A stretch of 64,000 nucleotides of DNA from positions 66,999-130,998 of the forward strand of contig CAVWBF010000020.1 of NCBI GenBank assembly GCA_963753085.1. Direction: 5' to 3'. This DNA comes from an uncultured Spirochaetota bacterium. GTDB taxonomy: Bacteria > Spirochaetota > Spirochaetia > SZUA-6 > Fen-1364. A model generated the notes under the pieces. It saw nothing but the letters and a program-made list of their open reading frames with translations. It made no database searches and was not told the DNA's origin. Positions 18,065 through 40,491 of the stretch are shown in pieces. A program made the translations under genes and the position numbers. How positions within the stretch are numbered: the stretch's first letter is position 1; each line of letters starts with the position of its first letter.

Positions 18065-18137
18065 GGGCCGCTAGCTCAGCTGGTAGAGCAACAGCCTTTT
18101 AAGCTGTGGGTCGCCAGTTCGACTCTGGCGCGGCTCA
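18065..18137 (+). tRNA. tRNA-Lys (anticodon TTT)
   Basis: Cloverleaf folded by hand. Acceptor GGGCCGC/GCGGCTC, D stem GCTC/GAGC, anticodon stem ACAGC/GCTGT with loop CTTTTAA, T stem GCCAG/CTGGC with loop TTCGACT. 73 nt; CCA not encoded. Confidence 0.93.
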
Positions 18138-18815: not shown

Positions 18816-21086
<2,271 letters not shown>

Positions 21087-26002: not shown

Positions 26003-26770
26003 TCAGCGCTTTCGAGCCTTTGCCGCCGCCTTCTTTTTGGCCGCCGGCCTGGCAGTCCTCCTGCGGGCAGTGCCGTTGACGCGCTTGGCTCCCGCTCGCC
26101 GGGGCTTCAGCGCCGTTCGCACTGGCTGGACCTTCTTCAGTTTCTTCTCCAGGGACGCCGAGTAGTCCTCGAGGTGCAAGAGGAGGTTGAATACGTCCTC
26201 CTGCGCCTTCTCATAAAGCTCACGGGCTTTGGCTGGGTTGGTTCGGTTCAGCTCCTGGACGTCATGAACGGCGATCACCGTGCCGTCTTCACCGGCAACG
26301 ACATCCACGGGCCTGCTCTTCTGGTGAAACACGGCGGCGGAGGCGAATACGCTCCCGGGCCGATACTTCATGCCGGGGTGCCCGTCGTTGTGCGCAGAGC
26401 CGCGGATGACCTCACAGGCAAGCCCCTCCGCTTCGCGCTTGCGCAGGACAACATCACCTCGTTGGAATGTCTCCGCGGGACCAGCCGCTTGCGCTGCAGG
26501 AGCAAAAACGGAGCTTGCCGTTAATCCGCCGATGCGCTCGTACGAGCTTCCGATCTTGAAGATCTCGGGATTCGCGAGCTGGTGCTTCCTTCCGTAAATC
26601 GCGTCATGCTTAATCTGGGCGAGATTTTTCGCGATTTTTATCGACTCCGAGTCGATGTCCGCCTCGGTCACCCCCATGAGGTTTTCCTTGACGACGAACT
26701 CCGATAAGAAGGGACAGCCGGGCTCCCGGCATCTGATCTTGTAGACAGCTTCCTTGAGCTTGAACGACAT
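26003..26770 (-). CDS. Hypothetical protein with a cNMP-binding-like beta-barrel core and a Lys/Arg/Ala-rich histone-H1-like tail
   Basis: SD AGGAGGAA upstream of ATG 26770. The central FQRGDVVLRKREAEGLACEVIRGSA...VVAGEDGTVIAVHDV resembles a cNMP-binding fold. The tail reads RRRTARPAAKKKAAAKARKR. Confidence 0.55.
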   Translation of the reverse strand: MSFKLKEAVYKIRCREPGCPFLSEFVVKENLMGVTEADIDSESIKIAKNLAQIKHDAIYGRKHQLANPEIFKIGSSYERIGGLTASSVFAPAAQAAGPAETFQRGDVVLRKREAEGLACEVIRGSAHNDGHPGMKYRPGSVFASAAVFHQKSRPVDVVAGEDGTVIAVHDVQELNRTNPAKARELYEKAQEDVFNLLLHLEDYSASLEKKLKKVQPVRTALKPRRAGAKRVNGTARRRTARPAAKKKAAAKARKR

Positions 26771-27045
26771 GACATTCCTCCTGTCGGTTCGACAACCGTA
26801 ATTCTATATTCCCAACGCCCCATTTTCCACCCGAAATCGCGAAAAAGCAAGGTAACCGCGGTGTTACCCGTTCCGAAAGCTCGATTGCTTCCAGGGCAAC
26901 GCGTTCGCGCCGGGCAGGTATACTCACGTGCACGGTGGCCGCGTCGATGGCCCGGGAAGGGCGGGGGAGACTGTTCCCGGCGCGCTCCCGGGAGCCGACC
27001 CGTCCGCTTCAGAATGAAGACATACGCAGGGAGAGGGAGCAACCG

Positions 27046-27846
27046 GTGGACGCAGTCACCATCAGCAGCATTGCGCTCGGGATCGTTTCCATTTTCATCA
27101 GCGGGTTCGCCATCTGGCTGAGCCTGCAGTTCAACGACCGCTCGGCAAGGGCCCTGGAATCCATCTCCCATCTCGCCACCGAGATCCGCTCCATGACGGA
27201 CATCAGCCTGGCGCACCAGAAGGATTTTTCCACCAAGATGCTGGACTCCCTGATCGAGATGAACGCGTATGGCCGCCCTTTCACCTATCCCGAGTCTCAC
27301 ACCGCCAAATCGAGCAGGCGTCTGGAGGAGCAGGCGCAGTCCCTGGCGGACACGGTGGAGCAGGCGGTGAAGAAGATTGCCGGCACGCATGCGGCGCCGC
27401 CCGTCGATGTCTCCCTCGAGGTCCAGGCGGTGAAGGAAGCGATGCGAAAGCTCGTGGAGCCGTCGAACGACGGGGGCTCCGCGTCGGTGCTGCCGGAGGA
27501 GCAGCGCAACGCGTTGAAATCATTCATGACCCATCCGGCCCACTACGTGCTCCTCACCGCAATTCTCCTGTCAGAGGCTCACTCGATTGACGACCTGAAC
27601 AGGATGGCGGACCGCTATCACGTCCCGGCAGGCTACCAGGGAGGCATCCTCCACCTGCTGGACAAGGGACTGCTCAAGGGATCACCGCAGAGCTTTTCCA
27701 TCTCCCCGGAGCTGATTGCCCCGCTCACCTCCTGGGTGGAGAAGAATATTTCCACGCTGACGAACCTGATGAGCTATTACGCTGATTCGCGGCGGTCTTT
27801 CCGCCAGTCGCCCGAGATGGAAAGAGCGAACGAGCTTCTCTTCTAG
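27046..27846 (+). CDS. Membrane-anchored hypothetical protein with a possible C-terminal winged-helix-like region
   Basis: GTG 27046 lies 6 nt after AGGGAG, followed immediately by a TM helix (ISSIALGIVSIFISGFAIWLSL). The track start at 26935 is an alternative. The C-terminus (YVLLTAILLSEAHSIDDLNRMADRY..LLDKGLLKG) looks wHTH-like. Confidence 0.5.
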   Translation: MDAVTISSIALGIVSIFISGFAIWLSLQFNDRSARALESISHLATEIRSMTDISLAHQKDFSTKMLDSLIEMNAYGRPFTYPESHTAKSSRRLEEQAQSLADTVEQAVKKIAGTHAAPPVDVSLEVQAVKEAMRKLVEPSNDGGSASVLPEEQRNALKSFMTHPAHYVLLTAILLSEAHSIDDLNRMADRYHVPAGYQGGILHLLDKGLLKGSPQSFSISPELIAPLTSWVEKNISTLTNLMSYYADSRRSFRQSPEMERANELLF

Positions 27847-28859: not shown

Positions 28860-30491
28860 CTAAAAGCTCAACCGGACGCTCGCCACGACGCGGAAGCCCG
28901 GCTCCACGTACGGATACAGGCTGGGACCGTATCGATGAAGCCCGCTCGACAACGGCCACAGGAGGTCGTAGAGATCGAGGTGAAGCTGGGCCGGCTCGGA
29001 AAGCCGAACGAACCCGCCGATATCCAGCTCAGGAAGCTGTACCGTCGGAGGCAGGCCCGTGAGCTGGGTTGCGCTGACCTGGCCGCCGTAGGCTCCGGTA
29101 GGCTCCATGGCCAGTGCCTCCACGGTTATCTCATCAGCAGGGGCAAAGGTCGACCTGTCGATGAACTCCCTCTTCCAGCCTGCATCCAGCGTCACTCCCG
29201 GCGTAATGGTCCATCGCAGGCCGGCGTCTCCTGTCAGCCGGGTAGCCGATGCCTGGGAGACGGTGTAGAGCCCCTGGTAATCCGGCGAAGGCGAGCCCCC
29301 GGTGAAAAAAGTCGATGTCGGCATTGCCGCGCTGCTCATGAAAGAAGCCTTCACGCGGACGCTCAAGTCTCCCGTAAGGGCAAGCTGAAAAGCTCCATCC
29401 GCAAACCACCCCCGGTCATCTACCAGGCCCACAGGTACAAGGTACGGATTGAGCGCCAGGATGTCACCCTGGTCGTAAGGGACAACCCGGTAGCCAAAGG
29501 ATGCATCGAGGGTGAGGGCTGAAAAAGGAGAACCGGTGGCGTGGATGGAAAAGGGGAGCAGGCTTCCCAGCTGGGAGCTCCAGAACCATGCCGCCGAGCC
29601 TTCCAGCAGGAGCGATCCCGGAAAGCTCAGGCTCAACGAGACTCCCGTGCGCAGGCGCTGCACCTGGTCGTCCCCTATGACGAGCATATGCGCCAGGCGG
29701 TAATCGTAGTCCCCGGAGACTCCGACGGTCAGTATCCCCGTGCGCGCCTCCGCGCCGAGGTGCGTCGTGCCCTTGTACTCGGCCGCCTGGCCGGGGGTGC
29801 TTGAGGCCAGTGTCAACGAATCCGTGACGCCGCGAACGGAGCCGTCCACCGTGAGCCAGTCGAGCGGCTGGACCCGCAGCGTGCCAGTTCCGTCGAGGTC
29901 TCGTCCGAGTCGATAAATGTACGGCGCCTGCTGCTGCAGGCCGTTCTCCTTTTCCGAGTAGCTTCCCTGGAAACCGCCATCGAAGGGCCCGAGCTTGCCC
30001 GAGATGTTGCCGGCAATCGTATCATCACGGGTGTCGTACCCGGAGCCCTGCGTCTGCCCCGAGATGCCGTCAGCGGTGTCATGGGAGAAGGAAAGGCCGG
30101 AGGTGGAATTGCCGCCGATAGTGGTCACGTTCAGGTTCCCCACGACCCTGTTCTGCGACCCGGCGCCCAGCGTGGCCTGCGTGGCAAGCGGGCGCTGGGG
30201 CGTTGCGGTCCCGCCAAGGGGATCAGACCCTTCCACCCCTAGCGTCCGCGCGGGCGCCTGGACAGCAAGCTCGGGTGAGGCAGGGAGGAGGACCGCGGCC
30301 CCCGCGAGGTTCACCGGGGGTGTGGGGGGGAGCATGGCCTGGATGTTTTCCACGCTGAGGTCCTGGATGTCCAGGGTCACCTGCGGCAGCACGAGCTCGG
30401 GCTGGGCGGGCTGGGCCGGCTGGTCTGCAGCCTCCAGGGCGGCAGGCGCCAGGAGGATCAGGAAAAGGGAGAGAAAGCGCAGCTTGCTCAT
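28860..30491 (-). CDS. Outer-membrane beta-barrel protein, unknown family
   Basis: Signal peptide ends ALEAAD. Alternating beta-strand pattern; C-terminal VVASVRLSF (terminal Phe). ATG 30491 overlaps the TPR gene stop (ATGA). I recognise no plug domain or TonB box. Confidence 0.65.
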   Translation of the reverse strand: MSKLRFLSLFLILLAPAALEAADQPAQPAQPELVLPQVTLDIQDLSVENIQAMLPPTPPVNLAGAAVLLPASPELAVQAPARTLGVEGSDPLGGTATPQRPLATQATLGAGSQNRVVGNLNVTTIGGNSTSGLSFSHDTADGISGQTQGSGYDTRDDTIAGNISGKLGPFDGGFQGSYSEKENGLQQQAPYIYRLGRDLDGTGTLRVQPLDWLTVDGSVRGVTDSLTLASSTPGQAAEYKGTTHLGAEARTGILTVGVSGDYDYRLAHMLVIGDDQVQRLRTGVSLSLSFPGSLLLEGSAAWFWSSQLGSLLPFSIHATGSPFSALTLDASFGYRVVPYDQGDILALNPYLVPVGLVDDRGWFADGAFQLALTGDLSVRVKASFMSSAAMPTSTFFTGGSPSPDYQGLYTVSQASATRLTGDAGLRWTITPGVTLDAGWKREFIDRSTFAPADEITVEALAMEPTGAYGGQVSATQLTGLPPTVQLPELDIGGFVRLSEPAQLHLDLYDLLWPLSSGLHRYGPSLYPYVEPGFRVVASVRLSF

Positions 30492-33379
30492 TTCCCTGCC
30501 TCCTGCAGCTTGCGCGCCCTGGCTGTCCAGGGCGACGATGGGAAGTTGTCCGACATCTTTTTCACAATGACCTGGACCTGGTCCGGGCGCTGGCCGAGCT
30601 TCATCATCTCCGCGGCCCGGAAGAGGGCGGACGCGGAAAAGTCCGCATCCGAGGCCCCAGCCTCCGCCGCCGCAACAAACCGCTTCGCCGCTTCCAGGAG
30701 GTCGCTCTTTCTATAGAAATATTCCCCTTCCAGGTACACGGCCCGGGCGCTCGTCATGCCGCTTCCCTGGCTCGCAACCTGCTGGAGCATCTGGTAACCC
30801 TGGTCGACCTTTTTCTCCCCGCTGTAGATATACAGCTTCGCAAGGTCGGTGGTCGCTTCCAGCTTTGCGGTGCCGCTTGAATGCGAGATGCGCGTCGTGA
30901 GGTCAGCTTCAGTGGAATCCAGTCCCTGGATCTGGTAGCGGAGTTTTTCAGCAGTAATGTCCGCTTTTGCAAGCCGCGCCTCGTCGGGATAGTCGGATAT
31001 GAACCGCGAGTACAGGTCGAGCGCGCGCCTGAGGTCGTTGGCGGCCTGGTAGACCTCCGCGGCCTTTCGCAGGGACGCGGCGCGGAACGAGCTGGACTTG
31101 TAGGTGGTTGCCAGCTGCTCCCAGAGAAGCGCCGCATCGAAGCGCGCGCCGGTTGCGTAGGAAGACTCTCCTCCCCAGTAGAGGGCCGCGTCGTACAGCC
31201 TCCCGGCGGGATATTTCCTCCTGTAATCGGTGAACGCTGACGCTGCGGCCACGTAGTTTCCCTGGTTGTAGAAGGTCTCAGCCACCTGGTAGCTTGCAGA
31301 TTCGGCCAGCGCGCTGTTCGGGAACTGGGTCATGAGGTTCCGGTAGGCATCGATTGCCCCGGAAGGCGACCCGGAAAGAGCCTGTACGCCGGCGTAGTCG
31401 AACAGGGCGTCGTCGGCAAAGGGAGACTGGGGTGACGAGCTGATGATGTGCTGGAGCGCCGTTGAGGCATCCGCCAGCTTCTTCGCGCCGATCAGGCTCT
31501 TGGCGTAGAGGTAGAAGTCCTTCTCCGAGGAGCTGCGGTCTCCTTCGGCCTCCGCGGCCTGGTAGAAGTCCGCCGATGCCTTGTCGAAGTCCCCAAGATT
31601 GAAGTGGCTCCATCCCGCGAGGAACAGGATCTTGGGGGCAAGAACGTGGCCGGGATAGGCAGTGATGAGACCGTCGAGGATCTGTGCGCTGCGCTTGAAG
31701 TCGTCCGTCTTCGAATACGCCCACCCCAGGTAGTAGCCGGAATAGGGCAGGATGACTCCGAGATCCCTCGCCTTGGCCGTCGAGGCATCTATTTTTTCCA
31801 GTGTTGCCGCGCCCGCGGCGTAGTCCTTCATGGCGATCAGGCTGAGCCCGCGGAGGTAGATTGCCGCTGTCCCGACCTGGGGATTCTTCGAGACGAGGTC
31901 AGGGCTCGAAGCCATGAGGGAAGCAGTTCCCTCCTCGACCGATTTGTAGTCCTTTGTCAGAAACTCCATCTCCAGCAGGTCGAGGTTCGCTTCTACGTCG
32001 AGGGGAAGGATTCCGATGTATTCCTTGAGCGCCGCAGCCGCTCCTGCGAAGTCCCCGCGCTTCTTCAGGATCTGCCCCTGAAGGCGAAGGAAATCCGCGC
32101 GGGCCCCCGGCGTGTCTGTGCTCTTCTGAAAGCGCGCCACTGTGGCAGCCGCCTGGTCTGTCTTGCCCTGGCGAAGCTGCACGTCTGCCAGGAGCGCAGC
32201 GGCCTGAGGCGCACGGGTGGAGGCGGGGTATGTTTCCAGGAACCGCGAGAAGATGCTTTCCGCAAGGGCCAGCTCCCCCGAGTCACGGGCAAGCCCCGCA
32301 AGGGCGAGCATTCCCGACTCGGAGGACGCGCCCGGCTGGCTGGTGTAGTCCTGCAGCAACGCCCGGGCACCGGCAGCGTCCTTCTGATCCTGGAGGATCT
32401 TTGCCAGGTAAATGGGGACCGTGCTGTCCACGGGGAAGGACTTCCTGAGGGCCCACGCCCTCTGGAGGTACAGCGATGCCGCGTCCAGGTTTCCTTTCTT
32501 GTAGTTTTCCACTCCCAGCCCGGCCCAGACATCCATCATGACCTGGGGAGTCGCCGAGAAATGGCTCTCCATCTCTCTGGCGATGGCTTCCATGCGGGGG
32601 AGGTCGGCCTGGGTCTCCGCGGCGCTAAACAGCCTGCGATACGAGGCAAGGGAGATGTCCGGCCGCGCGTCGCGGAGGTTCGTGTACGCGGTGATTGCGT
32701 CCCCCTGGCGCCCGCTTTCCCAGAGGCCTTCCGCCCTGTTGAAAAGGAACTCCTGTCGAAGGTCACCAGGCAGGGAGGCAGGGTCCGTCTCTGAAGACAG
32801 CTGCTCCAGGGCATCCCAGGATTTTTCCTTCAAGAGCAGGGAGGAGAGAAGGACGAGGGAAGGAGCGCGCAGGTCCGAGCCGGGCCATGCCCGCACGATC
32901 TGGCGCGCCGCGTCCACGGCTTCAGGCAGTTTCTGGAGGGCTTCGAGGTCGAGAGACTTGCACAGAAGCGCCCGGGGAACCAGCTCGGGATCCTTTCCGG
33001 TGGACAGGTACTCGTTGAGGGAGACGAGGCTGGGGGTGAACCTCGACAGCTTGTAGAGAGAGAGCCCCTGCCACAAGGGCACCGCCTCGATGTAGCGTGT
33101 CCAGCGGTAGCGCAAGGCGACGTCGGAGAGAATGGAGGACGCCTGCTGGTAATTGCCCAGCTGGTACAGGCACACGGCGCGACGGTACTGGACATCGGCG
33201 GCAAGGTCCGAGGAAGGGTATAATTGAAGGAACTCGTCGTACCCCACCAGGGCGGCAGTGTAGTTCTTGTCGAGGAACCTGCTCTCCGCCTCCGTGAAAA
33301 GCTCGCCGGAGGCCGGTGCAGCCCAGAGGGACACCGAGCCTGCCAGCAGGACCAGAACGGCAAGTGAGCGCATCCTCAT
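30488..33379 (-). CDS. Large secreted TPR-repeat protein (963 aa; CpoB/YbgF-like repeats)
   Basis: Start taken at ATG 33379 (MRMRSLAVLVLLAGSVSLWA signal peptide); 33373 and 33394 are alternatives. The 1295-aa track ORF runs into the divergent gene and is rejected. TPR-like helix pairs run throughout (e.g. YQLGNYQQASS, YNQGNYVAAASAFTDYRRKYP). Confidence 0.8.
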   Translation of the reverse strand: MRMRSLAVLVLLAGSVSLWAAPASGELFTEAESRFLDKNYTAALVGYDEFLQLYPSSDLAADVQYRRAVCLYQLGNYQQASSILSDVALRYRWTRYIEAVPLWQGLSLYKLSRFTPSLVSLNEYLSTGKDPELVPRALLCKSLDLEALQKLPEAVDAARQIVRAWPGSDLRAPSLVLLSSLLLKEKSWDALEQLSSETDPASLPGDLRQEFLFNRAEGLWESGRQGDAITAYTNLRDARPDISLASYRRLFSAAETQADLPRMEAIAREMESHFSATPQVMMDVWAGLGVENYKKGNLDAASLYLQRAWALRKSFPVDSTVPIYLAKILQDQKDAAGARALLQDYTSQPGASSESGMLALAGLARDSGELALAESIFSRFLETYPASTRAPQAAALLADVQLRQGKTDQAAATVARFQKSTDTPGARADFLRLQGQILKKRGDFAGAAAALKEYIGILPLDVEANLDLLEMEFLTKDYKSVEEGTASLMASSPDLVSKNPQVGTAAIYLRGLSLIAMKDYAAGAATLEKIDASTAKARDLGVILPYSGYYLGWAYSKTDDFKRSAQILDGLITAYPGHVLAPKILFLAGWSHFNLGDFDKASADFYQAAEAEGDRSSSEKDFYLYAKSLIGAKKLADASTALQHIISSSPQSPFADDALFDYAGVQALSGSPSGAIDAYRNLMTQFPNSALAESASYQVAETFYNQGNYVAAASAFTDYRRKYPAGRLYDAALYWGGESSYATGARFDAALLWEQLATTYKSSSFRAASLRKAAEVYQAANDLRRALDLYSRFISDYPDEARLAKADITAEKLRYQIQGLDSTEADLTTRISHSSGTAKLEATTDLAKLYIYSGEKKVDQGYQMLQQVASQGSGMTSARAVYLEGEYFYRKSDLLEAAKRFVAAAEAGASDADFSASALFRAAEMMKLGQRPDQVQVIVKKMSDNFPSSPWTARARKLQEAGK

Positions 33380-33745
33380 GGAAACGTATCGCATACCATG
33401 GAGTTCCTCAAGAGCCGAGCGTCCCGGGGAAGGCGACGAAGCTGTCACGTTTTTTGCCATACGGTGCAAGAGTACTACGAATGCCCGTGCGGTGGAGTCA
33501 TATGCGCGAGGAAAATGGGGTCGAATTTCCATGACACATTCCTTTTCCGCGCCCGCGCGGGTCGTGCGGCACCCGGGCGTGTCGTTGAGATTCGACACGA
33601 GAATCATCTTTCGGATTACTGACCCGGATTGTCGCTGATTCGTAGAGTAGCACTGGAGCAGTATTGTGGGAGTAGCAGGTCGAAACGCCGGCGTTGTTGA
33701 AAATGCCGCGCCATCGTTATACAGTATTCTCGACGGGAGGGCCCC

Positions 33746-36700
33746 ATGAAAAACCAGGTTCGCCGTTTCATCGTCGTCGCATTGTTTGCACTTGCCGCCG
33801 GGGCCGTCCATGGAGAGAGCGGCTTTCTGGATTTCTACTCCCCGCAGTTCCTCGGAGGGATGGGCGGGACGGCCAACCTGAACTCGCCGCAGGGGACGGT
33901 CCTCAACCCCGCCGTTGCCGGAGGCAAGCAGAGGGTGACCCTGGACCTCAGTTACCTGGCCCTGACCGGGGTGAGCCAGAACCCGGTTGCCCTGGACGGG
34001 AACTTCTTCAACCTCGGCGTGACCATTCCGACAAACGTCGGCGTGTTTTCCACCACCGGGCGTTTCACCAATGCGACCTTCTCCGGGGTTCCGCCGGCGC
34101 CCAACTGGGGGGCAATGGGCGGGCTGACCTTCGCATTCTCCAAGGATGTGTTCCCTGACTTGTACGTGGGCGCCGGCCTGGGAGGGGAGTTCGGCAGCGA
34201 CTGGGGCCTGGGCCTCGACCTCGGGTTCCTCCACATCCCCGGCGACCTCGGTCTCCTGAAAGACTTCCGCTGGGGCGCGGCAATCCGCAACATAACGTTC
34301 AAAGGCTACACTTCCTCCAACGCGCCCGGCTCTCTCGCGAACCCGCCCGTGTTCACCCCGGCAGTCGGGGCGCACTTCTCCCTTATCAGGACGGCTCCCT
34401 TCGTGCTCTCCCTGGACCCCGACATCAGCTTCCCGTCGTTCCAGGACCTGCAGGCCACAATCGGCGCGGACATGGTGATTGCCAATTTCCTGATCCTCAG
34501 CGGCTCCTACATATACGACCTGCGCCAGGCGGCGGGGATCGAGCCGTCGCGCTCCCTTCCGTTCACGTTCGGGGTTTCTTTCAAGATCACGACGAACATA
34601 CAGCAGAACATCGGCTCCCTGAACGCCACCGAGCAGGGTTGGAACAGGAGCGAGGTGACCAGCACGGCTGTCGCAGCGCCGCTTGAGAACGGCGTCTGGG
34701 CGTTCGGCCTCGGGGCAAACGTGCCCCTTGGCGCAATAGAGAAGAATCCTCCCGCCATCGGCCTTGATACGAACGGTGAGAAGTACGTCTCCCCGACTCT
34801 TGTAGGCGGAAAGGTGGACCTCGTCCTTCCTCTCTCAATCACCTCCAAGAGGTATATCAAGGGATACAAGCTCGTGATCCAGGATTCCTCGGGAACACCC
34901 GTGCGGACCATCCAGAACAAGGAGGACCGGCCCGAGAACAGGGACCTCGGCAACCTCGTGAAGCGTCTGTTCTACGTGAAGTCGGGGATCCCTATTCCTT
35001 CCAGCATCAGGTGGGACGGGACCTCTGACAAGGGGACCGTCGTTCCTGACGGCACCTACCGGTACTTCGTGGAAGCCTGGGACGACAACGGCAACGTCGG
35101 CAGGACCCCGCTGGGGACCACCATAGTCAAGACGGTGCCTCCGCAGATATCCGTGTCCGCCCAGTACCTGATCTTCTCTCCCACGGGGGAAGGGACCAAG
35201 GCGGCGCTTCCCGTGCACCAGACCGGCTCCAAGGAAGACCTGTGGAGCGGTGTGATCAAGGACGCTGCCGGAGGGACAGTGCGGACGTTCACCTGGAAGG
35301 ATTCTGCGCCGCCTGACTTCGAATGGGACGGGAAGAACGACAAGGGCGTCCTGGCCCCTGACGGCGTGTACAGCTACCACGTGGCCGCCACGGACAGGGC
35401 TCAGAACTCCAACGCTGCGGAACTGGACAACATCATCATCAACACCCAGGCCACCCCCGTCCAGCTCTCCATCGATTACGCGTATTTCTCCCCGGGGACA
35501 GAAAGTCCGAAGAAGGCAGTCACTTTCGCGCTCGGAGTGCCCGTCAAGACGGGTATCGAGAATTGGAGCCTCGACGTCTCGGACGCAAGCGGGGCCGTAC
35601 AGAGGACTTTCTCCGGGAAGATGAGCATCCCCGCGAGCGTCGAATGGGACGGAAAGGATGACAAGGGGAAGGTGCTGCCGGACGGCGGCTACAAGGCGAA
35701 GCTCGCCATCATGTACGTGAACGGACACAACCCGACCGCTGATTCACCTCTTATCACCATCAAGACGACCCCGCCCACCGCCGCGGTCTCCGCTGAATAC
35801 GAGGTTTTCTCCCCGACCGGAGACAGTGAAAGGAACACGGTCACGATCCACCAGGACACCTCTGAGGAGCTGTTCTGGACAGGGACCTTCAAGGACGACA
35901 CGGGCAAGGACGTCAGGACCGTGGTGTGGCGCGGGACCGCGGACCGCGCGTTCCAGTGGGACGGCCGCACGGACGACGGCGCGCTCCTCCCTGACGGCGC
36001 TTACACCTACGAGCTTTCCTCCACGGACCGGGCAGGCAACACCGGCTCCTCGAAGCTCATCACGCTGCGGATCGACACCCAGAAGAAGCCTGTCCGCCTC
36101 TCCACGGATCTTGCCTATTTCTCACCCTTCGGCGGCGGATCCAAGACGAAGCTCAAGATCATCCCGGCGCTCGCCGTGACCACGGGCGTGGAGTCGTTCG
36201 TCGTGCGCGTGAAGAACGCCAAGGGGGACGTCATCCGGACCTTCAAGGGAAGCAACCGGCCTCCCGAGGAGCTGTCTTGGGCGGGAATCGATGACGCGGG
36301 CAACAGGGCGCCGGACGGGCAGTACTCGGCGGAGCTTCAGGTTACCTACTCCAACGGCACGCACCCCACGGCGCAGAGCAATCCGTTCTTCATCGACAAT
36401 CATTTCCCGCAGGTCGACGTAAGCGCGGATGTGACGCTGTTCTCTCCGGACGGCACGAGCCGCCAGCAGTCCGTCCTCATCAAGCAGTCATCAAGCGATG
36501 AGGACCTCTGGGAAGGGGAGCTGCACAACGCCAAGAACGAGCGCGTCCGCGCATGGTTCTGGAAGGGCAAGGCGGTGGACTTCTCCTGGGACGGCAAGGA
36601 TGACAACGGCAACGTCGTTCCGGACGGCAGCTATACGTACGTCGTGAAGTCACAGACGAAAGCCGGCAACCAGACGGTCAAGGAGCTGCGGGGAATTGTC

Positions 36701-37777
36701 GTGGACACGAGGGCCACGCCCGTCTTCCTGACTGCGTCGGCAACGGGATTCTCTCCCACTCCGACCGGCGTGCCGAACACGATCGGTTTCAGCCCGATCG
36801 TGGGCCTGAAGGACGGGATCAGGTCGTGGAAGCTGTCCATGGTGAGCGCAGGCGGTACGTCCGTGAAGGACTTCAGCGGGCAGGCTCCCGTGCCGTCGTC
36901 CCTCACGTGGGACGGCAAGGACGAAGCAGGGGCAACCGCGCCGGACGGCCTGTACACGGCCGATCTCCAGGTGGACTACTTCAAGGGGAATCTCGCTGAG
37001 ACAAAGACGCCGGAGTTCGCTGTGAACGCAACCGGGCCAAAGGTCGATATCGCGCTCGGCGGCGTCCCGTTCTCCCCGGACAACGACGGCTACAACGATG
37101 AGCTCACCATCGGCCTGAAGGTGACGGATCCCAGCCCCATCGACAGCTGGAACATCCAGATCATGGACCCGGAGAACCACCCGTTTGCATCGTTCTCAGG
37201 GAAGGGCACTCCATCGGACAAGATCATCTGGAACGGCCTGTCAGATACCGGCGAGCTGGTGCAGTCCGCGGAGGACTACCCGCTGACGTTCACGATCAAG
37301 GACACGCTGGGAAATACAGCCACGTACAACAAGACCATCCCCGTCGACATCCTCGTTGTAAAGGACGGCAATAATCTCAAGATCAGGATCCCGAGCATCA
37401 CGTTCCAGGCCAACACCGCGGATTTCACGCACGTGGATCCGGATAAGGCTGCGAAGAACATCGCCACCATCGCCCGGCTATCGGAGATCTTCAAGAAGTA
37501 CAACCAGTACAAGATCACGATCCAGGGCCATGCGAACCTCGTGAACTTCGACAACCCGGTCGCGGCGAAGAAGGAGCAGGAGCAGGAGTTGATCCCCCTG
37601 TCGAAAGCGCGGGCTGAGGCCATCAAGCAGGCGCTCGTAGCCCAGGGAATCGATACAGCGCGCATTTCCACCGTTGGAATCGGAGGCGCGGAGCCGGTGG
37701 TGCCGTTCTCCGACCTCGACAACCGCTGGAAGAACCGCCGTGTGGAGTTTATCCTTGTCCGCAACGAAGGCAGCTGA
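33746..37777 (+). CDS. Giant OmpA-family envelope protein: N-terminal beta-barrel, 8 FlgD-Ig-like domains, C-terminal OmpA peptidoglycan-binding domain
   Basis: GGGAGG lies 5 nt before ATG 33746, with a signal peptide. aa 24-340 are barrel-like with GGMGGTANL..VLNPAVAG (PorP/SprF-like motif). Eight repeats carry W[DNA]G.xDxGxxxPDGxY. The C-terminus reads ITFQANTADF..LSKARAEAIKQAL..NRWKNRRVEFILV (OmpA_C). Confidence 0.85.
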   Translation: MKNQVRRFIVVALFALAAGAVHGESGFLDFYSPQFLGGMGGTANLNSPQGTVLNPAVAGGKQRVTLDLSYLALTGVSQNPVALDGNFFNLGVTIPTNVGVFSTTGRFTNATFSGVPPAPNWGAMGGLTFAFSKDVFPDLYVGAGLGGEFGSDWGLGLDLGFLHIPGDLGLLKDFRWGAAIRNITFKGYTSSNAPGSLANPPVFTPAVGAHFSLIRTAPFVLSLDPDISFPSFQDLQATIGADMVIANFLILSGSYIYDLRQAAGIEPSRSLPFTFGVSFKITTNIQQNIGSLNATEQGWNRSEVTSTAVAAPLENGVWAFGLGANVPLGAIEKNPPAIGLDTNGEKYVSPTLVGGKVDLVLPLSITSKRYIKGYKLVIQDSSGTPVRTIQNKEDRPENRDLGNLVKRLFYVKSGIPIPSSIRWDGTSDKGTVVPDGTYRYFVEAWDDNGNVGRTPLGTTIVKTVPPQISVSAQYLIFSPTGEGTKAALPVHQTGSKEDLWSGVIKDAAGGTVRTFTWKDSAPPDFEWDGKNDKGVLAPDGVYSYHVAATDRAQNSNAAELDNIIINTQATPVQLSIDYAYFSPGTESPKKAVTFALGVPVKTGIENWSLDVSDASGAVQRTFSGKMSIPASVEWDGKDDKGKVLPDGGYKAKLAIMYVNGHNPTADSPLITIKTTPPTAAVSAEYEVFSPTGDSERNTVTIHQDTSEELFWTGTFKDDTGKDVRTVVWRGTADRAFQWDGRTDDGALLPDGAYTYELSSTDRAGNTGSSKLITLRIDTQKKPVRLSTDLAYFSPFGGGSKTKLKIIPALAVTTGVESFVVRVKNAKGDVIRTFKGSNRPPEELSWAGIDDAGNRAPDGQYSAELQVTYSNGTHPTAQSNPFFIDNHFPQVDVSADVTLFSPDGTSRQQSVLIKQSSSDEDLWEGELHNAKNERVRAWFWKGKAVDFSWDGKDDNGNVVPDGSYTYVVKSQTKAGNQTVKELRGIVVDTRATPVFLTASATGFSPTPTGVPNTIGFSPIVGLKDGIRSWKLSMVSAGGTSVKDFSGQAPVPSSLTWDGKDEAGATAPDGLYTADLQVDYFKGNLAETKTPEFAVNATGPKVDIALGGVPFSPDNDGYNDELTIGLKVTDPSPIDSWNIQIMDPENHPFASFSGKGTPSDKIIWNGLSDTGELVQSAEDYPLTFTIKDTLGNTATYNKTIPVDILVVKDGNNLKIRIPSITFQANTADFTHVDPDKAAKNIATIARLSEIFKKYNQYKITIQGHANLVNFDNPVAAKKEQEQELIPLSKARAEAIKQALVAQGIDTARISTVGIGGAEPVVPFSDLDNRWKNRRVEFILVRNEGS
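35144..37042 (+). repeat. Three tandem ~633-nt (~211-codon) units, each encoding an A-type plus a B-type Ig-like domain
   Basis: Landmarks recur with a 210-211-aa period. VSAxY is at aa 470/681/892, WDG(A) at 527/738/948 and W[DA]G(B) at 634/845/1055. The units are diverged at DNA level (protein-level repeat only). Confidence 0.8.
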
Positions 37778-38862: not shown

Positions 38863-40176
38863 TTACTTTTCGGGAATCGTGTCGGACGGCACTCGCAGCT
38901 CGTGGGGATCGAGCCCGATCTGGTTTTTTCTGGGCGCGGCCGGTTCGGGAGCCGGCGCCTTCCTGCGGCCGGTGGCGTTTTCTTTCAGCTCCTGGCTTCC
39001 CAGGTGGTCACGAGTGCGGAAATACCTGGCCCTCGACTCCAGCTGGCTGGGGTTCTCGATCGTCAACTGGCGGAACTGGAAACTGAGGTTTGCGTCATCC
39101 GTGAGGAGCTCGGCGAGCTTCTGCTGCTGGTCCGCGGGAACCCTCGCCATGCCCAGGATCTCTCCAATGCCCAGCGGGAGCGTCACGGGCTTCGTGCTGG
39201 AAAGGGATATCCTCTCCTCCAGAAGCTTGTTCTCCAGCAGGACGTACGAGCGCGTCATGGGGTTCGTGTAGAAGCTTGACTGCAGCCGTATGAAGGTGAA
39301 CCACAGCCGCTGGCTGATGGCAGTCAGGATCCTGGCAATCGTCACCGGGGATTTTTCAAACAGGGCAGGAAGGGATTCGCGGGCAACGGGGAGCAGCGCC
39401 GTCTCACCGATTGCCACGGCGGTGGCGTTGCGCGGCTTGCTGGAGACGATGGAAAGCTCGCCGAATATGTCGCCTTCCCTGAGGATTGACAGGAGCATCT
39501 CTTCCGGCGGAGTGATCTTGAGGATCTCCACCTTGCCGGACTTCACGATGTACAGCTCTTTTCCCGGCTCGTTCTCGCAGAACACCATCTGAGCGTCGCT
39601 GTACAGGCGGGCCAGACCGCGCTGCGTCGGTGTCTGGGTCTTCATCCCTTTTGCCCGCAGGTCGGTCACGATCTTCTGCGCGGCCCGCGAATTGGGCACC
39701 GAAGGGTAGAGCTCAAGGTGCATTTTCAGCGCATACAACGCGTGGGCCTCACGACCCACCTTCATGAAATACATCCCCAGCTCGAAGAGCCGCTGCTCGT
39801 CCGTCTGCTCCGCCTTGTCCGACGGCACGGCCACCATGTCGTCATACGCGCGAAGCTCGTCGGCGAAGTAGGAGATGACCCGGGTGGCGAGCTCGGGATT
39901 CGACTGCACGGACTCCAGGAACCGGTCGCGTCCCAGCACGGCGCAGATGCAATCCGTGCGGGCCACGACGGTCTCCATGCGAGGGCGCCGGCAGAGACAC
40001 GAGGTGAAGCCGAAGATGTCCCCGGGGCCGAGGGTCGTGCGGAATCTCTTCAGCTCGGGGAAACCCTCGAGCTCGACCTCTCCCTTTTCGATGACGAAGA
40101 CGTCCCCGCTCTCCTCCTCGGACTCGAGGTAGATGCGCGCGCCCTTCTTGTAGCTCTTCTTCGTCGATTCGCTCAC
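38863..40176 (-). CDS. Protein with two cyclic-nucleotide-binding domains
   Basis: GTG start at 40176. Domain 1 reads GDVFVIEKGEVELE..GPGDIFGF. Domain 2 reads GKELYIVKSGKVEI..EGDIFGELSIVSSKPRNATAVA (FGE...RxA phosphate-binding cassette). Confidence 0.8.
   Translation of the reverse strand: MSESTKKSYKKGARIYLESEEESGDVFVIEKGEVELEGFPELKRFRTTLGPGDIFGFTSCLCRRPRMETVVARTDCICAVLGRDRFLESVQSNPELATRVISYFADELRAYDDMVAVPSDKAEQTDEQRLFELGMYFMKVGREAHALYALKMHLELYPSVPNSRAAQKIVTDLRAKGMKTQTPTQRGLARLYSDAQMVFCENEPGKELYIVKSGKVEILKITPPEEMLLSILREGDIFGELSIVSSKPRNATAVAIGETALLPVARESLPALFEKSPVTIARILTAISQRLWFTFIRLQSSFYTNPMTRSYVLLENKLLEERISLSSTKPVTLPLGIGEILGMARVPADQQQKLAELLTDDANLSFQFRQLTIENPSQLESRARYFRTRDHLGSQELKENATGRRKAPAPEPAAPRKNQIGLDPHELRVPSDTIPEK

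Positions 40177-40419: not shown

Positions 40420-40491
<72 letters not shown>

Follow-up and report, generated by a model that had tools for sequence, protein, structure and literature searches.

We found that one gene in a 64,000-nucleotide stretch of an uncultured Spirochaetota genome (contig CAVWBF010000020.1; the whole stretch is called the window below) encodes a spirochaete envelope protein in which a predicted N-terminal outer membrane (OM) beta-barrel is followed by a chain of eight immunoglobulin-like (Ig) domains and then by a divergent OmpA-like domain. This order of parts had been proposed in an earlier note made from the DNA letters and is confirmed here. Our data suggest that the protein is probably a tether which fastens the OM to the cell wall by a spacer of modular length across a wide periplasm. 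The spirochaete wall lies beyond the rotating periplasmic flagella; its peptidoglycan is thin and far from the OM (PMC5104382), and how the fragile OM is attached to it is an open question (PMC5104382; PMC8407342). The protein family described here, which is widespread, supplies a concrete candidate for the attachment. Every single part of it is already known, as is the logic of joining a barrel through a connector to an OmpA domain. What is new is the type of barrel, the long and nearly always even Ig spacer, the existence of fused and split forms, an OmpA-like domain without the residues that bind diaminopimelate (DAP), and, in one clade, an operon with a Tol/Ton-like motor. Beyond what the earlier note contained, the analysis brought to light this Tol/Ton-like neighbourhood, the homology of the Ig-OmpA part to Lsa66 of Leptospira and the occurrence of family members in cultured Treponema species.

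The open reading frame (ORF) starts with ATG behind a GGGAGG ribosome-binding site and covers exactly the 1343 codons of the forward strand that the earlier note had assigned to it (33746-37777). Hundreds of homologues, the closest 97% and the most distant about 31% identical, show that the gene is real and no chance ORF. The closest relatives, at 97% identity, are labelled 'MAG: Spirochaetia bacterium' (MAG, metagenome-assembled genome) and assign the window to an uncultured Spirochaetia lineage of soil or peat; the G+C content of the window is 58-66%. The signal peptide, MKNQVRRFIVVALFALAAGAVHG and then ES, has a cleavage site that was placed by eye. It contains neither a cysteine nor a lipobox, and the protein is thus not a lipoprotein as Pal is. 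A promoter-like site upstream of the gene counts for little, since it is a consensus match and one such match was found where 0.8 were expected by chance.

Barrel, plug and OmpA-like domain

The N-terminal region is confidently predicted to be a FadL/PorV-like membrane barrel of 14 strands. An AlphaFold2 (AF2) model built from a 39-sequence alignment (pLDDT 84.6, pTM 0.80) contains the 14 strands, preceded by a plug of short helices (aa 26-60). When this model was compared with known structures by Foldseek, the best matches were to PorV of the type IX secretion system (T9SS; 8gl6_F and 6h3i_F, E 1.7e-8, TM ~0.60), followed by TbuX, FadL and TodX (E 4e-6 to 3e-5, TM 0.44-0.51; among single entries, TbuX 3bry at E 4e-6 and FadL 1t16/1t1l at ~2e-5, TM 0.45-0.5). 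This bears out the N-terminal membrane barrel of the earlier note, as opposed to a soluble domain, and the motif it had picked out, GGMGGTANL...VLNPAVAG, is present. The family would offer an example of a FadL/PorV-type barrel used as a membrane anchor.

No membership in a known family was detected at the sequence level. Pfam gave no match to the barrel region of the query even at E<=10, nor to the barrels of the 39 alignment members at E<=5, Toluene_X (PF03349) being included in both cases; the first 350 residues matched no NCBIfam family and a profile of the barrel family matched no PDB sequence. Since the Pfam, NCBIfam and PDB sequence searches were all empty, the identity of the barrel comes from structure prediction alone. 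The Pfam assignment that had been suggested for the whole protein therefore succeeded for the FlgD_ig and OmpA parts but not for the barrel. Also unlike the situation of PorV, no T9SS components were found among the scanned window genes, a sub-threshold PorW/SprE match of a neighbouring tetratricopeptide repeat (TPR) protein aside.

An even number of strands places both ends of the barrel on one side, and the C-terminus would thus lie in the periplasm. Consistent with this, all but one of the model's six periplasmic turns are only 2-4 residues long. Short turns are a usual feature of the periplasmic side of barrels.

The layout resembles that of E. coli OmpA and of OprF, which likewise begin with an OM barrel and end with an OmpA-like domain, the two being linked through the periplasm by a connector. 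However, the barrel of OmpA has 8 strands while the one described here is predicted to have 14 and a plug, and matches no Pfam barrel family. In addition, the connector is about 865 aa long and made of eight Ig domains, where OmpA has a short Pro-rich hinge.

The plug holds the most conserved residues of the family, LNPA among them. In the family alignment N54 and P55 are invariant, and S32, P33, P48 and A56 are conserved in at least 90% of the sequences. By our own reading, and not by alignment, the NPA motif and an N-terminal Gly-Phe appear to lie roughly where P34 and F3 lie in FadL, counted from the mature N-terminus; FadL mutants at F3 and P34 (PDB 3pgs and 2r4l) are in the Foldseek list for the barrel. 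These features raise the possibility that the protein is primarily an uptake channel of the FadL type, which would import hydrophobic compounds by lateral diffusion, in the manner of FadL and TodX, while the Ig-OmpA tail fixes it over the wall or scaffolds a periplasmic hand-over. The predicted fold, shared with FadL, TodX and TbuX (14 strands and an N-terminal plug), and the confidently modelled plug with its NPA motif would suit such a channel. Three of the five FadL-like proteins of Treponema pallidum have periplasmic C-terminal extensions (PMC8407342), although the extension there is alpha-helical and not composed of Ig domains and an OmpA-like domain. The two roles are also compatible, since OmpM is documented as both channel and tether (PMC10628300). 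Against a channel as the primary function, Toluene_X is not matched, the structure closest to the model, PorV, is not known to be a channel for lipids, and no genes for the catabolism of fatty acids or aromatic compounds lie nearby in the contexts examined. It would also leave without explanation a spacer of 4 to 16 units that varies only internally. We regard a primary role in uptake as unlikely.

Over aa 1220-1330 the C-terminal domain scores 43.9 bits with Pfam OmpA (PF00691; cut-off 27.2 bits, E 3e-11). Its relatives in the PDB include PA0833, YiaD, T. pallidum Tp0624 (5jir, phmmer E 1.3e-8) and also MotB. We then compared 188 family domains aligned with E. coli Pal with the canonical peptidoglycan-binding motif TD(x)7NxxLSxxRA, in which Asp, Asn and Arg take part in binding (PMC5104382). 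The ligand-binding Arg (R1289) is invariant in 189/189 sequences; Asp and Asn, which OmpA and OprF have, are missing. The 'clear' OmpA domain of the earlier note thus stands as far as the fold is concerned, but two of its three canonical binding residues are absent. Since the DAP-binding Asp and Asn are missing and only the Arg is kept, binding to peptidoglycan is plausible but would be non-canonical. In most spirochaetes ornithine replaces DAP in the wall (PMC5104382). The OmpA-like domain of Tp0624 (PDB 5JIR), also spirochaetal and divergent, has likewise lost the DAP-binding Asp while retaining the Arg. Tp0624 differs in having two unrelated N-terminal domains, neither of them a barrel or Ig repeats, and in its motif, which is TAD(x)6[E/Q]xxLSxxRA as compared with HA[N/V](x)17ELxPLSxxRA in the family described here. 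The present domain is therefore a second spirochaetal OmpA-like domain without the DAP-binding residues.

An Ig chain of variable length

Pfam FlgD_ig matched the connector across 7 stretches (E 6.5e-56), and a hidden Markov model (HMM) trained on the family resolved 8 Ig units (E 1e-26 to 1e-34 each). Two types of unit, with periods of ~104 and ~107 aa, alternate along the chain. The number of Ig domains given in the earlier note is therefore correct, while its statement that each carries the motif W[DNA]G..D.G...PDG.Y holds for seven of the eight, unit 8 (WNGLSDTGELVQSAEDY) having no PDG. Partial Pfam matches to CHU_C and Big_13 coincide with the Ig units. We rejected CHU_C (PF13585), a C-terminal sorting domain of the T9SS, as an assignment: its matches are partial (profile 42-77 of 86), internal and present in four copies that overlap FlgD_ig, and the C-terminus of the protein is OmpA-like.

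The FlgD_ig matches, together with matches to the NCBIfam FlgD and MotB models and automatic JGI names such as 'flagellar hook assembly protein FlgD', could be taken to indicate a flagellar accessory protein, that is, a FlgD-related or MotB-like part of the periplasmic flagellar apparatus. However, the scores against the FlgD equivalog are far below its cut-off (best 145 against 230 bits) and come from the Ig part, which is matched seven times. The N-terminal domain of the FlgD hook-cap protein is not found by Pfam. The N-terminus is a predicted OM barrel, unlike the inner-membrane helix of MotB, and no flagellar genes were found among the scanned window genes or in five other loci examined. 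Since the Ig fold is shared, the FlgD annotation is an artefact, and a flagellar role of this kind is scarcely credible.

Counting the units in homologues showed how the chain varies. A strict WxG...PDG.Y regular expression gave scattered counts, and HMM counting was used instead. Complete homologues carry 4 (n=7), 8 (n=128), 10 (n=12), 12 (n=25), 14 (n=1), 16 (n=2) or 11 (n=1) Ig units, so that the count is nearly always even. The order of the units was then read with position-specific HMMs. The 8-unit class has the order 12345678 (60/60 controls), the 4-unit class 1278 and the 10-unit class 1232345678. The 12-unit class comprises at least 5 different internal duplications, for example 123456745678, 123454545678 and 123456345678. 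Units 1-2 and 7-8 were present in all but a few single sequences. Changes in length thus consist of pairs of internal units gained or lost, with several independent origins, and in a neighbour-joining tree of the barrels the length classes are interleaved.

Some relatives that begin with the same barrel are far longer. The protein at L072:9713-20897 has at least 31 Ig units and P0238 (4065 aa) at least 34; both stop at the end of their record, so that their C-termini are not covered and the counts are lower bounds. If extended, these giant chains would measure well over 100 nm. With them the family forms a natural length series of 4, 8, 10, 12, 14, 16 and >30 Ig units. Paralogues of different length also occur, since MAG UBA1318 carries both L046 and L071, one with 8 units and the other with 10. 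Two paralogues are likewise found in MAG MFD01476.bin.2.126 (L011, L027).

Constant ends and variable internal pairs are the behaviour of an adjustable spacer, which fits selection on length. The periplasmic spacer proposed in the earlier note thus gains support from the family, namely from the even counts, the fixed end units and the independent internal duplications and deletions. Its ruler fares less well. The evolution of the chain is spacer-like, but a strict, single rigid ruler is opposed by the forms with at least 34 units, by the 4-unit forms and by the unequal paralogues; because 8- and 10-unit paralogues coexist in one MAG, such a ruler is too simple.

With roughly 4 nm per Ig domain taken as an estimate, eight units would give a chain of about 30 nm. 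This is of the order of the gap between OM and wall in cryo-electron tomography (cryo-ET) of treponemes. A full-text literature search found no published periplasm dimensions for Treponema.

We propose that the protein would be exported by Sec and inserted by BAM, with the 14-stranded barrel sitting in the OM and the plug and both chain ends facing the periplasm. From the periplasmic face of the barrel a tandem array of eight FlgD-type Ig domains would extend, with a reach of ~30 nm. The terminal OmpA-like domain would then hold non-covalently to the thin, probably ornithine-type, peptidoglycan near the inner membrane. Units 1-2 and 7-8 may serve as specialised junction modules, and units 3-6 as interchangeable spacers that would be gained and lost in evolution as pairs of one A-type and one B-type unit. 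Of this picture, the order of the domains, the predicted fold, the conservation, the modular repeats and the operon structure come from the analysis itself, while the localisation, the binding to peptidoglycan, the extended shape of the chain and any coupling to a motor are inferred.

A tether of this kind would be comparable to OmpM/SlpA of diderm Terrabacteria and to Lpp of E. coli, which also combine an OM anchor, an extended spacer and a wall-binding module and for which length matters in spacing; in E. coli the distance from OM to wall is set by the length of the tether (PMC5736177; PMC8824477). Here, in contrast, the spacer is an Ig chain and not a coiled coil, and the wall is bound by an OmpA-like module, where the other tethers use an SLH domain or are linked covalently through Lys. 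OmpM, moreover, has its domains in the reverse order.

Distribution, split forms and barrel-less relatives

A search of 1.84 billion representative proteins with the barrel profile gave 432 matches at E<=1e-3. With the exception of some unclassified bins, few in number, and of a single MAG that bears the label Deferribacteres, all named family records are from Spirochaetota, and they span Spirochaetaceae, Treponemataceae, Rectinemataceae and Treponematales. The family is common in free-living spirochaetes of soil, peat and sediment that have no host. Cultured carriers are Treponema pedis, Treponema sp. OMZ 799 and Teretinema (Treponema) zuelzerae, and since cultured Treponema carry family members the proposed tether is open to genetics and cryo-ET. 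Members bear generic database names, such as 'FlgD immunoglobulin-like domain containing protein', 'OmpA family protein' and 'gliding motility-associated C-terminal domain-containing protein'. In agreement with the earlier note, which knew of no described function for the architecture, our literature search found no paper describing the combination of barrel, Ig chain and OmpA domain or its function.

According to a survey of OM tethers, a barrel joined to an OmpA domain is the only type found in Spirochaetes, which are without Lpp and Pal (bioRxiv 10.1101/2021.05.31.446380).

In addition to the fused form, stand-alone barrels of ~350-365 aa make up one clade of ~28 representatives, and in some genomes the two halves are encoded separately. 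At L069:4850-9063 the barrel gene is followed by a gene overlapping it by 4 nt (ATGA) that encodes a signal peptide, 8 Ig units and OmpA. At L077:1390-2980 a 1-nt gap separates the barrel gene from a signal-peptide and Ig gene that ends at the contig end after its first unit. P0397 (Brucepastera) is another split-form protein, not located on a contig. Since the Ig-OmpA half has its own signal peptide when it is a separate gene, it would be a Sec-exported periplasmic protein, and since the two genes are adjacent, the barrel and the Ig-OmpA half would belong together functionally. The even strand number and the signal peptide of the split forms together place the Ig chain in the periplasm. This agrees with the periplasmic location assumed in the earlier note, and the short periplasmic turns of the barrel point the same way; the findings argue against a surface-exposed chain.

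A candidate from a cultured treponeme may be mentioned here. The periplasmic (aqueous-phase) MOSP co-immunoprecipitate of T. denticola contained TDE0664, which is annotated as an 'OmpA family protein' and has an SPase I signal (PMC5643300). This protein might be an orthologue of the family.

The relative for which surface display has been claimed is Lsa66 of Leptospira interrogans (LIC10258; NCBIfam NF053608, Lsa66_OmpA). Residues 840-1337 of the protein, that is, its C-terminal 500 aa, align with positions 96-579 of the 581 in the Lsa66 profile (E 3e-102). Like the split forms, Lsa66 has Ig units and OmpA behind a signal peptide, but its length is ~583 aa, and the paper on it describes no barrel (PMC3130794). 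The score of 343 bits lies below the NF053608 cut-off of 700, so that the two proteins are homologous and not equivalent. Binding of Lsa66 to laminin, fibronectin and plasminogen has been reported, as has its detection on live cells (PMC3130794), and tandem Ig-like repeats are frequent in adhesins. By analogy the Ig chain could be displayed outside the cell as an adhesin, the OmpA-like part being irrelevant to wall binding. However, a 14-stranded barrel with a periplasmic C-terminus gives the chain no path to the surface, and the split forms have a Sec signal peptide only. The Arg and the fold of the OmpA-like domain are strictly conserved. The surface evidence for Lsa66 itself is focal immunofluorescence, at ~75 copies per cell (PMC3130794). 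Because many carriers are free-living in soil, peat and sediment, the role of Lsa66 as an adhesin for host matrix cannot apply to the soil spirochaetes. We therefore consider a surface adhesin very improbable.

Gene neighbourhood and points against a tether

The coordinates of the gene, its parts and its neighbours are given in Table 1. The TolQ-like gene starts 26 nt past the stop codon with no terminator between. Since the spacing is this short and the TolQ-like gene has its own ribosome-binding site, the two genes and the TolR-like gene are probably co-transcribed. The TolQ-like protein scores better against NCBIfam tolQ (E 7e-35) than against exbB (2e-26); both scores are below the cut-off, that for tolQ being 120.7 bits against 221. 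The TolR-like protein reaches E 1e-27 and 97.3 bits against a cut-off of 127.3 for tolR. A terminator-like hairpin after the TolR-like gene is a possible end of the operon.

Table 1. Positions in the window of the tether candidate, its domains and the genes around it
Feature	Coordinates	Strand	Remarks
Target gene	33746..37777	+	1343-aa ORF, ATG start
Promoter-like site TTGAAA-17-TACAGT	33697..33725	+	consensus match only, in 351-nt divergent intergenic region
Signal peptide, aa 1-23	33746..33814	+	SPase I type; helix aa 2-19 in AF2 model
N-terminal plug (hatch), aa 24-60	33815..33925	+	SGF...SP...LNPA motif; short helices in AF2 model, pLDDT 88-95 for aa 31-60
Predicted 14-stranded OM beta-barrel, aa 61-328	33926..34729	+	AF2 strands from aa 64-75 to aa 317-328; FadL/PorV-like
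Ig unit 1, aa 342-467	34769..35146	+	barrel-proximal type, 21-aa insertion; retained in nearly all homologues
Ig unit 2, aa 468-571	35147..35458	+	type A; retained in nearly all homologues
Ig units 3-6, aa 572-678, 679-782, 783-889, 890-992	35459..36721	+	internal; duplicated or deleted in relatives
Ig unit 7, aa 993-1099	36722..37042	+	type B; retained in nearly all homologues
Ig unit 8, aa 1100-1206	37043..37363	+	OmpA-proximal type, without PDG; retained in nearly all homologues
Divergent OmpA-like domain, aa 1207-1343 and stop	37364..37777	+	GHAN(x)17ELIPLSKARA versus canonical TD(x)7NxxLSxxRA
TolQ/ExbB-like proton-channel subunit, 206 aa	37804..38424	+	Pfam MotA_ExbB E 1e-31; own ribosome-binding site
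TolR/ExbD-like subunit, 139 aa	38426..38845	+	Pfam ExbD E 1e-27; transmembrane Asp (TPFTDVV)
Terminator-like hairpin after tolR	38906..38921	+	pattern match; regional count not above shuffled expectation
Secreted TPR protein, 969 aa	30488..33394	-	~6 YbgF/CpoB-type modules; divergent; signal peptide
543-aa barrel protein	28860..30491	-	signal peptide, 80-aa Pro/Ala-rich disordered arm, plug-less ~22-strand barrel, ends ...VRLSF
TonB/TolA-like protein, 332 aa	27851..28849	-	His in transmembrane helix, long Gly/Gln/Pro-rich linker, TonB_C

A divergent operon lies on the other side of the gene. Its TPR protein is above the cut-off of NCBIfam TIGR02795 tol_pal_ybgF (E 4e-54, 182 bits against 90, 6 stretches), is matched by Pfam TPR families as well and is far larger than CpoB. 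The mechanically called ORF (30488..34375) is overextended by 327 codons into the target gene, the true start being near 33394. The 543-aa protein has no Pfam or NCBIfam match and only 22 homologues. Its AF2 model has a pLDDT of 68.5 overall and of 80-95 in the barrel, and the best Foldseek match is BtuB (E 1e-14, TM 0.52), as in a TonB-dependent transporter (TBDT). We rejected this neighbour as the missing TolB, since it is predicted to be a plug-less, BtuB-like barrel of ~22 strands. The TonB/TolA-like protein matches Pfam TonB_C (E 4e-9) as well as NCBIfam tonB_Cterm (E 2e-11) and tolA_full (E 4e-7), and its assignment to TonB or TolA is ambiguous. Its linker, of ~200 aa between the transmembrane helix and TonB_C, is extreme in Gly, Gln, Ser and Pro content and has GGGG runs. 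In the arm of the 543-aa protein a conserved ELVLPxVTLDIxDLSVEN could act as a TonB box, the TonB_C gene being directly downstream.

As in the Tol-Pal system (TolQRA, TolB, Pal, CpoB), the gene of an OM-anchored OmpA-like protein thus adjoins tolQ/tolR-like, TolA/TonB-like and CpoB/YbgF-like genes. The window differs from that system in that the OmpA-like protein is no lipoprotein, TolB is lacking, the gene order is another and a TBDT-like barrel stands in the cluster. In this clade the tether would be co-expressed with a TolQ/TolR-like motor, beside CpoB-like TPR and TonB/TolA-like proteins, and may also fill the part of Pal in Tol-Pal.

We searched the proteins of the window's neighbours by phmmer against the ORFs of 72 family loci. 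The cluster of the window is repeated in its closest relatives (L001-L004), and a 12-Ig clade (L017, L028) has an independent order, tolQ-tolR-tonB-gene, in which an ATGA overlap occurs. Linkage to TolQ/TolR/TonB was found in 6/72 loci in all, even though the flanks of 33 loci reach 5 kb or more in both directions. By Pfam, the contexts in other lineages are unrelated: MltG/DnaG/RpoD, PAP2, FemAB and, in T. pedis, YmdB/V-ATPase. These four contexts and the 6/72 loci rule out a Tol/Ton synteny conserved across the family, and since the 543-aa barrel family has 22 members, the cluster is specific to one clade. The link to a motor is real for this clade and does not define the family.

Taken further, the protein would be the OM partner of a Tol/Ton-like machine driven by the proton motive force: a barrel-anchored equivalent of Pal, whose wall binding or position would be controlled jointly by a TonB/TolA-like protein that TolQ/TolR energise, by the CpoB-like TPR protein and by the 22-strand barrel without a plug. 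The tolQ and tolR homologues so close downstream, the make-up of the divergent operon, its recurrence in L001-L004 and the translational coupling in the 12-Ig clade all favour such a machine. Against it are the scarcity of the linkage, the unrelated neighbours in T. pedis and three other lineages, and the clade-specific 543-aa barrel. In addition, there is no lipobox and no TolB homologue among the neighbours, and the TolQ, TolR and TolA scores are below the NCBIfam equivalog cut-offs. We think it doubtful that this machine is what the protein mainly serves. Equally speculative is an extension of the tether in which the Ig chain would be an evolutionary length dial, the number of internal A/B pairs setting or matching the spacing between OM and wall that is needed to house the periplasmic flagella. 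Active management of the tether, by a TolQR-TonB/TolA-like motor without TolB, would be added in some clades, as a new barrel-anchored Pal equivalent with non-DAP (ornithine-type) wall recognition.

Several observations weigh against the tether itself. In the OmpA-like domain the canonical Asp position (N1264) is N in 115, V in 59 and A in 8 of the aligned domains, and never D. The canonical Asn position is Leu (L1282), and the loop has a conserved 11-residue insertion. In Tp0624, where the Asp is likewise lost, DAP is not bound (PMC5104382). The forms with at least 31-34 Ig units are far longer than the width of any periplasm, and the 8- and 10-unit paralogues of UBA1318 occur in one genome. 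The barrel-less relative Lsa66 has been reported to be surface-exposed (PMC3130794). The conserved plug with its invariant NPA hints at a channel function, which a pure anchor would not need. Finally, the rare linkage to TolQ/TolR/TonB and the unrelated contexts of other lineages belong here, as does the lack of a TolB or WD40/PD40 match among the window neighbours.

In two lineages cell-wall genes adjoin the family gene (L073:14012-15037; L075:8543-9619). In one of them the next gene downstream is YceG/MltG, and MreBCD and PBP2 follow within a few kb; in the other FemAB is directly upstream. These neighbours are a weak hint of a wall-related role.

Proteins with cyclic-nucleotide-binding domains flank the envelope cluster of the window, at 26003-26770 (-) and 38863-40176 (-). 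Both genes are at the same positions in L002-L004, and that at 26003-26770 is also found in L001; since their position is conserved in relatives, they may regulate the cluster. The ORF at 26668-27390 (-), of 240 aa, was rejected as a gene. It is Arg-rich, has no family and no homologues, and is almost certainly a shadow ORF of high-GC DNA.

Further out, the window carries tRNA genes at 18065-18137 (+) and 40420-40491 (+) and a KatG-type catalase-peroxidase of 739 aa at 18816-21035 (-). The remainder consists of housekeeping genes, including those for ComEC, a MiaB-like radical SAM enzyme, MTHFR, a Mur ligase, YicC and an old-yellow-enzyme reductase.

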